From Cystobasidiomycetes sp. EMM_F5 (lineage: Eukaryota), in contig JBPGPT010000005.1 of the NCBI GenBank assembly GCA_051047955.1, positions 310,001 through 374,000 on the forward strand: 64,000 nt of DNA, given 5' to 3'. Positions 12,098-52,666 of this stretch are shown here, piece after piece. The stretch's first letter is position 1. Each line of letters begins with the position of its first letter. The notes beneath the pieces were generated by a model, which ran no database searches, was not told where the DNA came from, and saw only the letters and a program-made list of their open reading frames with translations. The position numbers and the translations under genes are program-made.

Positions 12098-15000
12098 ATG
12101 TCGTCCAGTCCGCAGTATGCGCAGAATGACCGCCCCAATCCTCTTGGTGGACGGTCTTCCTCGCCGCTGCTGTTTCCAGACTCGTCGCCGCGTCAGAGCC
12201 CGGTCGCGTCGCAGCAGAACGGGGCAGGAGCAACAAGACTAGAAACGCCGTCAAATGCGCAAGCTCAGCGCTCAAATACCGTCGTAGGGTCAAGCTCACC
12301 CCTCCGCTTCCCATCCTCTTCGCCGCGTCCTGCTGCTGCATCTTCCCAGGGCACTCCACGAGGAAATGGCCCATCTGTTCGACCGCTGTTTGCACCAGGC
12401 TCAGCACCGCGCACAAATGGCTCGAGTGCACGGCGCAGCGCAGCGAGAGCTACACGTGGTGACCAAGCTGCTCCAAACGCGCCATCCAGCGAACCGCTCT
12501 TCTTCCCATCATCGGCAACTCCAAAGTCACGACGCGTCCGAGGAGACATCCACTCCTCATTGCCCATGTCGCCGTCCCCGCTGCGCAGAAATGGACAAGC
12601 GAACGCAAATGAGGACGGAAATGCACCAGACCCAGCTTCCTCTGCTGCCGGCGCGGCATCTCTGCATTCAGATGGCAGCAGGCTCGGTCGTGCTGCACCT
12701 TCGCTTAGCAATGTTGGCATGTCGTCGGATGCAGTAGAAGAGAATGAACGCAATCAAGGCGCACGCACCGTTATCTGGAATACGGCCGTCTCCCTCGACG
12801 AGACTATGAACAGCTTCAAGGCCTTTCTCCAAGATTTCAAGCTCAAGTACCGCATTGACGCAGCTAGAAAGGCTGGAAAGACAGTAGCTGACCCTGCAGA
12901 GCCCAACAAGCTAGTCTACGAGCACTAGTAAGCGGTTCGCGCGTGATCATCGCAACAGAGACTGAGAATCCGCAATAGCCTTCGGAAGATGCGGACATCA
13001 AAACAAACAAATCTCAATCTTGATCTCTCAGACTTGGAAGCGTATCCGTTGACAAAGAAACTGGCACGCTGGTTCCGCACATACCCTCAGGAAGTCGTTC
13101 CAGTCTGTGATCAAGTCTTGAAAGAGTCAGTGCCGTTTTCCAATAAACGCCATTCATGGCTAAATGGTTACACCACAGCTGCATGATAGACTTGGCCGAC
13201 AAAGATCATGCAGCAGACCCCACTGCTGTCACAGACCAGGAATTCGACCTCATTGACACCAGCATCTACAAGATCAGGCCATTTGGGATATATGAAGTAC
13301 CTGATGCAGTCGCCAAGGGGACGGCGCGGCTACATACACTCAAGGAGGAGCGAAGCCTGGGTATCAATATGCGCGAGCTGAATCCTCAGGATATCGACAA
13401 GCTGGTTACCGTCAAGGGATTGATTATTCGGTGCACTCCTATCATCCCGGACATGAAAGTTGGTAAGTACAGCGATCATGCATCGTCAGTATAAGCGAGC
13501 TCACATTCCCATCATAGCCTTCTTCCGCTGTCTGAACTGTTCACATACGGTGACCGTTGACGTTGACAGAGGCCAGATCGCCGAACCGGATCGTTGTCCT
13601 CGCGAACAGTGCAACCTGCAAGGTAGTATGGCTTTGATTCACAATCGTTGCGAATTTGCGGACCGCCAGGTAATCCGGCTTCAAGAAACTCCAGACGTTG
13701 TTCCAGATGGTCAAACTCCGCACACGGTCTCCCTTTGCGTGTACGACGAGCTGGTCGATTTGGCAAAACCAGGTGATCGCGTCGTCGTTACCGGTATATT
13801 CAGATCTGTACCCGTACGCGTCAATCCGAAGCAACGCGTCATCAAATCATTGTTCAAGACCTACGTCGACGCTCTACATGTTCGCAAGACCGACAAGAAG
13901 AGACTCGGGCTGGACCAGAGTACTCGGGAGACGGATAGTCCCAATAAGGAGCGATCAGTCGGGGTCGGACCGGACGAGGAGGATGAGGAAGCTGCTGCAC
14001 AGATTGCCTTTCCGAGTGATGGACCCGCAGAAGGAGGTATGGACCTGGATGACGAGACTTTTGGTGAAGATACATTGGCACCACCGCGACCTCCAGCGCA
14101 GCCTAAGCGGACGTTGGCAGAGCAAGAAGAGAAGCTTGTCGAGTTGTCCCGTCGACCAGATATCTACGATGTGCTAGCGAGATCGCTCGCCCCAAGTATC
14201 TGGGAGATGGACGACGTCAAGAAAGGCATCCTGTTGCAACTTTTCGGCGGGACCAACAAGTCCATTGCGCGCGGCGGAGGATCCGGTGGGCCGCGCTACA
14301 GGGGAGACATCAATGTCCTGCTTGTGGGTGATCCTGGTACTTCCAAATCTCAAATTTTGCAATACGTACACAAGATTGCACCGCGTGGTGTCTACACATC
14401 TGGTAAAGGCTCTTCGGCTGTCGGTCTCACTGCATACGTCACGCGAGATCCAGACTCCAAGCAGCTCGTGCTAGAAAGGTGAGGCCATTTTCTGCAAGTC
14501 ATGATCATTCCTTGTTGATGCATGTCGTTGATTAGTGGCGCGCTGGTACTGTCAGACGGCGGTGTTTGCTGCATTGACGAGTTCGATAAGATGTCCGATG
14601 CTACGCGAAGCGTACTTCACGAAGTTATGGAGCAACAGACCGTGTCTATTGCAAAGGCTGGCATCATCACTACTTTAAACGCGCGCACGTCTATTCTGGC
14701 AGCAGCAAACCCTGTCGGCTCGAAGTACAATCTCAAGTGGCCAATTACACGAAATATTGACTTGCCGCCTACTCTGATCTCGAGATTTGACTTGTTGTAC
14801 CTGGTCCTTGACAAGATTGACGAAAGCAATGACCGTCGCTTGGCCAAGCATCTTGTCAGCTTGTACCTCGAAGACAGGCCAGACACTGGAGGTCACGATA
14901 TACTAGTAAGTCATGTCAGGGTCTCTGACCGAAAACGCTTGCTGATTGTCGCCATCGTAGCCAATCGAGACTCTCACAGCCTATATCTCGTACGCACGGA

Positions 15001-15649
15001 CCCACATCAATCCGGAATTGACGGCACCTGCGTCGGAAGCCCTTGTACAAGCCTACGTGGCTATGCGCAGTGCAGGTATCGATGCTCGAGGAGGGAGCGA
15101 AAGACGTATCACTGCAACCACTCGTCAATTGGAGAGCATGATTCGATTGTCTGAAGCTCACGCTCGAATGCGCTACAGCGATCGCGTCGAGCTGCAAGAC
15201 GTCGAAGAGGCCAATCGGCTGATTCGCGAAGCTCTCAAGGAGAGTGCTACTGACCCCGTCACTGGCCTGTATGAACAACCTGTCTGCTCATTACGTGCAA
15301 TTTACTAATCTCCTCCCATAGCATCGATTTGGACCTGCTCAACACTGGTCATGGCATGCAACAACGCAAAATGCATGGTGACCTTCGCCGTGAGGTGCTG
15401 GCAATCCTCGAGCGCGTTGGTACCGACAAGGCAGTGCGGTGGAATGAGGTGGCCAAAACGCTCAATGACCAAAGTTCCATACCGGTCGAGCCTGCGGAAC
15501 TCACGAGTGTCATCAAGGTGGGTTTCAGATGCGATGATCGCGTAACATGTCAAGCTGACTGCGTGCTCAAATAGGAACTCGAGCAGGAGGGTCAAATTGC
15601 TGTTCGTGGAACACATGATAAGCGTACGCTGCGCAAGCTGGTAGCCTAA
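12098..15649 (+). CDS. MCM4: DNA replication licensing factor MCM4 (Cdc54/Cdc21)
   Basis: S/P-rich N-terminus, Zn finger, [19 protein letters not shown], Walker [21 protein letters not shown] arginine finger and [10 protein letters not shown]. Confidence 0.97.
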
Positions 15650-29508: not shown

Positions 29509-30764
29509 ATGGCCCATTTAACACCTGCACTCGGCGGGGACAACACGGAAAAGCTGCAGCTAGCTTCAACATTTGCTGAGAGCATACAGCGATTTCATTT
29601 TGAGGACAAGAGGACGCGTAGTTCTCCTAGGCGGCGCGTTACAAGTCCCGCCAGTGCTGCTTCAACGTCATACACAGTTTCCTGTTCCACACCGCCAACA
29701 AAGCGCAGGACATTATCAGATGGCAAAGAGTCATCTTCAACACTACACTCCGCCTCCAAGTCCCCTAGAAAGCGTCAAAAAACGAGAGCGACGTTTGAAG
29801 ACATGGCGGAGATACCGGATCGTTTAGCGAAGGATCTGGACAGTCGGTGGACTGTACTCTTTCTACTGATCGCAATGACCTGACTACGAATGATGAAAAC
29901 TGCCTCTAGTCCTCTTTTGCGGATACAACCCTGGCGTACGGTCATCCGAACTCGGCTACCACTATGCTCACCCCTCGAATCGATTCTATCGCATATTACA
30001 CGAGTCAGGATTGACAGAGAGGCGGCTGAAGCCTGAAGATTCGCCGTCTATGCCCGAAACTTACAAACTTGGCTTGACTGACCTCGTCGCGAGGTGTACG
30101 GCCCGCGCAGATCAGGTTTCTAGCCTGGAGTTTCAGGCTGGTGCTGTTGGCCTGCTGGAAAAGATTATCAAATGGCGACCAAAGATGTTCGTGCGAGTCC
30201 AGCTACGTGATCCGTCTATATGAGGCTGATATCTATTTTAGGGTATGCTTCGTAGGCATGGACGTATACCGCAACTTTCGCAAACATTTTGCGGCTGTCT
30301 TAGATAAGGATCGTGTCCGCGTAAAGTCGGAAATAGATGATAAGGTCACCCTTGTCCCGCGTTCTCCGCCCCCGAGCCCTCACAAACAATCTAAGAGCGA
30401 TGTTCGTCTGGGTCTACAGGAAATAGTGCTGTCTATCGCACCGGAGGATGTAGATTCTGCGCCAAGAGATCTGGTGAGGCTATTCGTCATCCCTTCTAGC
30501 AGCGGGCTAGCAGCTGGGTATAGTGTGAATGTTTTCGGCGGTATATGACGACGTATGCTAGCTAATCACTCCGTATTTCTGCAGGATCAAGATAGAATAG
30601 GATACCTCAAGCTTGCGAAAGAGATAGTCATGAGCATACGGGCAGGTTGGTACGCCGAACCATCTGACATTCTTGCTATCGATGCGGAGCTACATCTGGA
30701 GAGTCGCATCCAGCAACAAGCAGCTGGAAAGTGGAGCTTTGTAAAGTCAGAAGCGGATCTCTGA
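29509..30764 (+). CDS. TDG/MUG-family mismatch-specific uracil/thymine DNA glycosylase
   Basis: LFCGYNPG..S...GYHYAHPSNRFY, GLTDLVAR.T and FVIPSSSGLAA motifs. Confidence 0.88.
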
Positions 30765-50846: not shown

Positions 50847-52666
50847 ATGTCTGCTGAAGGATGGGGACAGAGCAACGACGGGGGTGCGGGTGCGGGGAGT
50901 GTGTTGCTGTCTGACAAGCGTTCTCGAGGGCTGAGGTTAGGGCCTCGCGTTACCACCGGACACCCTGTTGGCCGTCTCGCTCTTCTCTTGATGTCTCGCG
51001 CCGTATCTTCGATGCCTTCGTCGTCGTCCACTCCTCGCATCTCGCGTCCCCATTCCGTCGCTTCTCCCTCTCGACCTACCCATCTCTCCGCCCTCCCTAA
51101 AACCATAACCCGATCATACGCACGCTCAGGTTACGGTGGTGCAGATACCACCTCGTGGGGTGTAAGTAGCGAGGTTGATACGTCGGCATGGTTGTCTTAC
51201 TGACTGCGTTGATGCTTAGAACTCCGGCGGAAACAGCGGCTACGGCCAGCGATCGACCGCCTGCTTCAACTGCGGACAAGGTTAGTCTCAGAATCCAATC
51301 AATTATTACGCATACTGATTATTGCCCTTGTACAGAGGTGATTGTTATTCCATTCCAGACTGTGTTTGCTCTCCTGGGTGCCCTCTCCTTCCACATACAA
51401 AGCTCGTTTGGCAGCTGTCCTAGTAAAGCTAGCATACAATGTGCCAGCAGAGTCTTGTTTTCCATCCCATCATCCTCTCCTCCTCACGTGTGTCGTAGCG
51501 TACAGAGTCGTCTTCGGAAGGTGGTCGGAAGAGTGCTTTCGAAGCCGTTTGGCGTGATTGACGAAGAGCAGCAAAGTGAAGTGCAGTCGAAGATGCAGAA
51601 GAGGGTCGAGTCGAGTCCTACGATGTTTCGTCGAGATTCGAGGAGTCACGGTTTGCAATGCATTCATTTCCGTTTCGAACTGCTTGATTGCCCCTTTGGC
51701 TGTTTTCATTCGACATCCTAAGTCTTTCCAATCGTGAGCAGGTGTGCGGGAACAAGTAGTCGGAGCTAGACACGAGCGAGGTTGGCGTGATGCAGAGGAG
51801 TCGAGCTGGGGCGAGGTCGGAGGTCCACTTGTGTGATTTTTGACTAACTGTGCATCTGTCCAACTCTCCTGATTGGTATTCTGCATACTCCCGCACTCCC
51901 GCATCTGACCGCGCACCACATCACTACATCGACCCTGCTTTTAACGCATTGTACTGATTTACTTGACCCATTACCTCTGCCATTCCGTCTCGCGCTCGCA
52001 TCAGGGTCACCGATCCAGCGGTAAGTTGCAATATGATCTGGCCGACTTGGTCATCGTCTCTGACAGATTGTGTCGTAGACTGCACCGAGCCCCGCAAGCC
52101 CCGTGCCTGCTACAAGTGCGGCCAAGAGGGTCACATGTCTCGAGACTGCCCAGATGCTGGCAACAGCGCCGGAGGTGGTGGCTACAGCAGCCGACCCGAC
52201 ACTCGGTCGTGCTACAACTGTGGACAGAGCGGACACTTGTCGCGCGACTGCCCAACCAAGTCTGACCGCGGATACGGCGGATCGAGCGGAGGAGGAGGCG
52301 TGAGTTGCTACTTTGCATGTTGATCGATAGCAGTGCTCAATCTCTGTGTTCTTCTCTTGTAGAACTGCTACAACTGTGGACAGCCCGGCCATCTGAGCCG
52401 TGACTGCACTGAACCCCGCTCCGACAGCCGCGGAGGCGGAGGAGGAGGCTATGGCCAACGAAGCTCGGGCGGACGCTCGTGCTACAACTGCGGCGGTGAC
52501 GGCCACATTTCGCGTGACTGCCCCGAGCCACGACAGGGTGGAGGTGGAGGAAGTGGCTACGGTCAGCGAAGCGGCGGTGGAGACCGTGCATGCTACAACT
52601 GTGGCCAGACTGGACATTTGTCCCGTGACTGCACCAACCCGGCCCAGTCTTCCGGTGGCTACTAGA
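50847..52666 (+). CDS. CNBP/Gis2/Byr3-like multi-CCHC zinc-knuckle RNA-binding protein
   Basis: Six CX2CX4HX4C knuckles ([42 protein letters not shown] and others) with RGG/GY linkers; requires the 2-nt exon 51336-51337. Confidence 0.9.

Follow-up and report, generated by a model that had tools for sequence, protein, structure and literature searches.

The window (the whole 64-kb stretch of DNA that was analysed) carries on its + strand a gene for a CCHC zinc-knuckle protein, read from an ATG at 50847 to a stop codon at 52663-52665. In the first knuckle of this gene an acceptor, TACAG (51331-51335), and a donor, GTGATT (51338-51343), are separated by the two letters AG (51336-51337). The original prediction, made from the letters and their reading frames, was that this AG is an obligatory exon of two nucleotides. 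On re-reading the sequence, all of the letters and coordinates on which that proposal was built were recovered. The features of the gene, with the contig joints from the sequencing runs X12, X1 and X2 that bear on them, are as follows.

50847-50889, + strand: coding part of exon 1, ATG at 50847 (X12 joint 50888->51129, with GT..AG ends when the cut is moved by +1; frame checked)
50890-51129, + strand: intron 1, 240 nt (X12 joint)
51130-51161, + strand: exon 2, 32 nt (X12 joints on both sides; frame checked)
51162-51219, + strand: intron 2, 58 nt, GT..AG (X12 joint 51161->51220)
51220-51280, + strand: exon 3, 61 nt, first half of zinc knuckle 1 (sequence and X12 joint)
51281-51335, + strand: intron A, 55 nt, GTTAGT...TACAG, with CTGAT at 51315-51319 and the branch A 17 nt from the intron end
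51336-51337, + strand: proposed 2-nt exon AG (AG present in the X12 contig; placement inferred from the splice signals)
51338-52004, + strand: intron B, 667 nt, GTGATT...ATCAG, with the last CTGAT at 51954-51958 and the branch A 47 nt from the end
52005-52020, + strand: 16-nt exon GGTCACCGATCCAGCG, the second microexon (G H R S S plus G; in the X12 contig with CGA->CGT at 52013, synonymous)
52021-52078, + strand: intron, 58 nt, GTAAGT...CGTAG, with CTGAC at 52060 (skipped in the X12 contig)
52079-52299, + strand: exon 6, the end of knuckle 1 (AC TGC), knuckles 2-3 and Gly-rich linkers (Pfam zf-CCHC, PF00098)
52300-52362, + strand: last intron, 63 nt, GTGAGT...TGTAG (joint 52299->52363, GT..AG, in contigs of X1 and X2)
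52363-52665, + strand: last coding exon, knuckles 4-6, stop TAG at 52663-52665 (Pfam zf-CCHC)

The zinc-knuckle gene and its product

The last letters of exon 3, up to 51280, are ...TGC TTC AAC TGC GGA CAA G, with GTTAGT next (51281-51286); the acceptor ...ATCAG ends at 52004 and the 16-nt exon, GGT CAC CGA TCC AGC G, occupies 52005-52020. GTAAGT and a 58-nt intron come next, and coding sequence resumes with AC TGC... at 52079. The original argument from reading frame was borne out: a direct join of 51280 to 52005 shifts the frame and leads to a stop codon at 52263-52265, 34 nt upstream of the last exon junction, and with the AG added the frame is restored and stays open over 225 codons. The restored product, CFNCGQEGHRSSDC, is a full C-x2-C-x4-H-x4-C knuckle in which the two nucleotides complete the codon GAG (Glu) of CGQEGH. 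The knuckle, of 14 residues, is split by three introns and runs through both the 2-nt and the 16-nt exon.

With the AG included, the model has seven exons, 678 nt and 225 amino acid residues, begins with ATG, contains no internal stops and encodes six C-x2-C-x4-H-x4-C knuckles. Pfam zf-CCHC (PF00098) was detected in exon 6 (E 1.6e-19, 69.4 bits, two stretches) and in the last exon, exon 7 (E 1.9e-27, 94.5 bits, three stretches), both scores lying above the gathering cut-off of 20.8 bits, which places the protein in this family; knuckle 1 was assigned by the C-x2-C-x4-H-x4-C regular expression only. Exon 1 ends at a pair of tandem donors, GTGCGG|GTGCGG (50884-50895), which start at 50884 and 50890, 6 nt apart and in the same phase. 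The X12 contig agrees with the second donor, which places the start of the intron at 50890. Splicing from the first would shorten the mRNA by two codons, a form not seen in the contigs of X12.

The gene had been called CNBP/Gis2-like, which is a fair description of a multi-knuckle CCHC protein. CNBP/Gis2, HEXBP and CnjB-type proteins resemble it in their repeated C-x2-C-x4-H-x4-C knuckles (PF00098) and Gly-rich linkers. Orthology, by contrast, is unsupported: CNBP/Gis2 has seven knuckles as against six here, and the named ustilaginomycete Gis2-like proteins among the matches are 39-49% identical over the last exon. Protein searches with the last exon (word index and HMMER) gave repeat-driven matches only, at up to 70% identity; among the 295 proteins examined no ortholog stood out and none had a matching N-terminus. 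Two Penicillium proteins (P0022 and P0025) share the motif CxNCGQEGH....C-TEPRK..AC. Searches of metagenomes with exon 6 as the query revealed no orthologous locus, the best match being 65% identical (80 loci of 234 tblastn-confirmed stretches).

Interrupted knuckles were found at two of those 80 metagenome loci, L055 and L076. On the unrelated, AT-rich eukaryotic contig of L055 (940-1140), a knuckle of a CCHC gene is interrupted by one intron, with no microexon, at the codon position seen here (CAA G|gt...ag|TT GGA CAT); another knuckle-interrupting intron lies at about 568. Distantly related organisms repeatedly have introns within the CGQxGH motif. Annotated Gis2-like proteins of Moesziomyces, Testicularia and Thecaphora (P0044, P0057 and P0012) start with garbled sequence that ends abruptly within a knuckle or immediately ahead of one, which suggests that introns have been mis-predicted where related genes encode their knuckles. 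In the window, the MCM4 gene (12152-15520, + strand) has an exon no more than 75% identical to any named protein, and its best named matches are almost all from basidiomycetes, Microbotryomycetes first. Given this level of identity, the source organism is a basidiomycete without a close annotated relative.

Transcript contigs and the source of the two nucleotides

Contigs from four runs (X12, X1, X2 and X13), the best-matching of 15, were examined; none of the 15 is recorded as RNA. The junction is covered by X12, and the contigs of X13, X1 and X2 do not reach it. One X12 contig (depth 17.4, with at least 37 letters on each side) connects 51280 to 52078/9 through 17 letters, which spell AG and then the 16-nt exon, altered by one synonymous change. 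The cDNA junction that had been forecast is thereby found, one synonymous base apart. The same contig settles a premise of the forecast, that the first knuckle belongs to the mRNA, since exon 3, the AG, the 16-nt exon and exon 6 are all carried on it. Transcript support for the AG consists of this one contig, from one run of unrecorded library type.

The other X12 joints, 50889/51130 and 51161/51220, both have GT..AG ends, and X1 and X2 share the joint 52299/52363. Compared with the window, the spliced X12 contigs show two differences in 101 nt, none in 54 nt and the one synonymous change in the 16-nt exon; the X12 junction comes from a genotype slightly different from that of the window. X12 also includes a contig within intron 1 (50884-51088, 205 nt, three differences), which indicates that the same organism's unspliced RNA, or its DNA, is present in that sample. 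The form that includes the AG is the only one seen in the contigs of the four runs. No skipped or alternative junction was present among the six joints listed for these runs; as assembled contigs drop rare forms, this absence is weak evidence. Partly spliced intermediates and lariats were likewise not seen among the assembled contigs, none of which covers 51308-52067.

Since AG is the whole of the exon and also the end of every intron, the letters of a transcript cannot by themselves place it. The X12 contig aligns equally well to the window with a single gap, 51281-52002, which has GT..TC ends. This is the sole alternative alignment: the left side stops at 51280 and the right side extends back by exactly 2 nt. 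Within the 724-nt interval 51281-52004, AGAGGT occurs once, and it is present in 1049 of 5000 dinucleotide-preserving shuffles of the interval. Around it the elements of a splice site pair follow one another: CTGAT, whose A lies 17 nt upstream of the end of the intron, a run rich in pyrimidines, then CAG, AG and GTG. The complete arrangement, CTRAY, 5-40 nt, then YAG|AG|GTR, appeared in 23 of 5000 such shuffles, a count to be read with the fact that this strict pattern was defined only after the site was seen. Across all 64 kb of the window this strict pattern has two occurrences, one on the + strand at the microexon site and one on the - strand.

Two readings in which the AG at 51336-51337 is not the source of the two letters, or in which the contig says little about this gene, were weighed against these data. 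If 51281-52002 were a single non-canonical GT..TC intron, the AG of the mRNA would be 52003-52004 and TACAG|AG|GTGATT a coincidence. That the X12 contig permits this one other single-gap alignment is in its favour; set against it are the full set of branch site, acceptor, AG and donor exactly where two nucleotides are needed, with the shuffle count given above, and the AG ends of all 10 other introns examined in the window. A TC 3' end is not known to belong to any recognised spliceosomal acceptor class (GT-AG, GC-AG or AT-AC), and for this reason the single intron is judged very unlikely. The contig might, on the other hand, not be mRNA of this gene at all, and instead derive from the DNA of an intronless copy or retrocopy, or from another organism in X12, with the locus in the window perhaps spliced differently or a pseudogene. 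The unrecorded kind of X12, the presence in that run of related sequences about 90% identical (contig 4, which differs at 21 of 204 nt) and the contig over intron 1 (50884-51088) would all allow this. The spliced X12 contigs are nevertheless nearly identical to the window, each stretch that they skip is bounded by GT..AG in the window, and the frame of the window is intact over 225 codons only with the AG; a retrocopy, too, would preserve the spliced product. We consider such an origin of the contig extremely unlikely.

The AG has canonical splice signals on both sides, as expected of an ultra-short microexon (at most 3 nt), with a downstream donor that lacks G at +5, and its letters stand at the mature-RNA junction in one X12 contig. 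Taken as a whole, these findings make it highly likely that AG 51336-51337 is a real 2-nt internal exon of a six-knuckle CCHC zinc-knuckle gene in a basidiomycete fungus. Its inclusion appears to be constitutive.

Splice signals and the order of intron removal

In size and signals intron A is typical of the short introns in this gene and in MCM4: these measure 52-63 nt, begin with GTNNGT and carry CTRAY some 15-17 nt upstream of YAG. In MCM4 itself the introns are about 52-60 nt long, the donors are GTAAGT, GTCAGT or GTATGA, and the branch sites are of the CTRAY type. Intron B is about 12 times the usual length, and its donor, GTGATT, has no G at +5 and departs from the GTNNGT of the other nine introns examined. 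There is no AG between the last CTGAT of intron B and its acceptor ATCAG.

Intron B had no Rfam match at E values up to 1 and no copy elsewhere in the 64-kb window, and being single-copy there it is not an introner-like repeat within this stretch. It showed no excess folding stability (z +1.35; 19 of 20 shuffles fold at least as well), and its stop-free frames reach up to 156 codons. A 10-bp helix that could pair the microexon and its donor (51333-51342) with 51970-51979 was rejected as being at chance level, 621 of 1000 shuffles containing an equal or longer one. At 51489-51506 intron B contains TGTGTCGTAG, a copy of the acceptor of the next intron (52069-52078), followed by GTACAGAG, which repeats eight letters of the microexon region (51330-51337) without the GT donor; these sites are possibly decoys or possibly chance matches. 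A pattern scan of the window also gave a candidate 1-nt exon at 30187-30248. It was rejected, as 30187-30241 is an ordinary intron and coding continues past its acceptor; the surrounding reading frame (29897-30330, + strand) presumably encodes a protein resembling mismatch uracil/thymine DNA glycosylase.

Two separate canonical reactions would insert the AG, one removing intron A (55 nt) and the other intron B (667 nt). U1 pairs with a donor from about -3 to +6, and the AG of the intron A acceptor sits at -4 and -3 of the intron B donor. Since this acceptor and this donor are 2 nt apart and can hardly be engaged together, the two introns would have to be removed one after the other, an obligatory sequence to which the spacing of the sites points. 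Removal of intron A first is somewhat the likelier order, because intron A is complete 55 nt past its donor and the 3' end of intron B lies 667 nt later; the reverse order is chemically possible too. Intron A would be recognised by intron definition, and its removal would give ...CAAG-AG|GTGATT, that is, an exon 3 longer by AG that bears the donor of intron B. Intron B would then be excised once its distant 3' end is transcribed. As the context from -4 to +6 is unchanged after intron A has been removed, the donor of intron B would need no remodelling.

On the exon side of a donor, the consensus that pairs with U1 has A at -2 and G at -1. The microexon AG would thus add two U1 base pairs and may compensate for the absent G at +5 of GTGATT. 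The choice of acceptor also seems safe, because CAG is the first AG past the branch site and the next, GAG, is of the poorest acceptor type. A preference for CAG over GAG would guard against a 2-nt slip that destroys the frame.

The original prediction had also offered the site as a sensitive point for nonsense-mediated decay (NMD). In that case the 2-nt exon would be real and its use regulated, with skipping, or use of the second AG, giving a frameshifted, NMD-prone mRNA, so that the level of the protein is tuned and perhaps autoregulated by the RNA-binding product. Skipping leads to the premature stop at 52263-52265, followed by about 340 nt of former coding sequence and the 3' UTR; a donor weak at +5, combined with an intron B some 12 times longer than usual, could render the choice a sensitive one, and a regulated microexon has been described in the account of Trichoderma Xlr2 (PMC11121469). 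Against this, none of the six joints in the four runs is a skipped or alternative one, a weak argument as contigs drop rare forms, and the stop is merely 34 nt before the last exon junction. Regulated use of the exon is, on balance, improbable. A more specific form of the idea is that the 2-nt exon, the weak donor and the 12-fold over-long intron B act together as a kinetic gate, in which splicing of intron A would have to precede transcription of the remote 3' site of intron B for the AG to be included; the speed of transcription, or binding of the gene's own single-strand nucleic-acid-binding product, would then favour the frameshifted form, and the protein would be autoregulated in this way. 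This is speculative and we hold it to be distinctly improbable.

Relation to known splicing systems and meaning of the site

Exons as short as this one have precedents close to the case described here. The long-read annotation of Coprinopsis cinerea, as summarised in its report, includes 57 two-nt exons in 50 genes, together with 13 one-nt and 27 three-nt exons (PMC12230235). Like the AG, the Coprinopsis exons are internal coding 2-nt exons of a basidiomycete, their omission breaks the frame and gene predictors miss them (PMC12230235). Coprinopsis belongs to a different fungal lineage, and, unlike in that comparison, the 2-nt exon here precedes a 16-nt exon and both lie within one 14-residue knuckle. 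In plants, APC11 and VPS55 are described as having constitutive 1-nt microexons validated by RNA-seq and RT-PCR (PMC8831610). As at this locus, an exon shorter than one codon is flanked by canonical introns and is absent from annotations, and missing it truncates or alters the N-terminus; the plant exons differ in being of 1 nt and not 2 nt and in their conservation across land plants, according to the same source (PMC8831610). The two-nt exon is a known but rare type, to which this locus very probably adds a new case.

The original prediction had suggested that the splicing is recursive or stwintron-like. Recursive splicing through a zero-nucleotide exon has been described at the ratchet points of Drosophila (bioRxiv 10.1101/006163), and stepwise splicing at abutting sites, again with a zero-nt exon, in BOT1 of the basidiomycete yeast Cryptococcus neoformans (bioRxiv 10.1101/224170). 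These systems, as described there, share with the present site an acceptor and a donor that abut within an apparent single long intron and two successive canonical reactions. They differ in that their first ligation restores the 5' splice site and zero nucleotides are kept, whereas here GTGATT pre-exists and 2 nt are kept. The donor is not regenerated and the junction does leave something in the mRNA, so the word 'recursive' holds as a description of how the splicing works and does not hold as membership of the class.

The second suggestion fell. A stwintron is defined by a donor, branch site or acceptor of one intron that is interrupted by another intron (PMC8469720), and stwintrons are described as the spliceosomal twin introns of Pezizomycotina (PMC8469720, PMC9024468, PMC12403724). 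They are alike in being fungal and in needing two consecutive U2-type reactions for the mature mRNA. Stwintrons, however, are nested and interrupt a signal, as these sources define them. Introns A and B are neighbours, each with an uninterrupted donor, branch-like site and acceptor, side by side; as no splice signal is interrupted, the arrangement is not a stwintron.

The practical consequence of such an exon is for annotation. By overlooking the AG, a predictor would either omit about 60 residues at the N-terminus, along with zinc knuckle 1, or begin them in the wrong place, and such misannotation matches that described in the reports on plants (PMC8831610) and Coprinopsis (PMC12230235). The finding would not surprise a specialist, and it is useful for both annotation and splicing studies, as the locus is a compact natural test case of an intron-defining spliceosome that faces an acceptor and a donor only two nucleotides apart.
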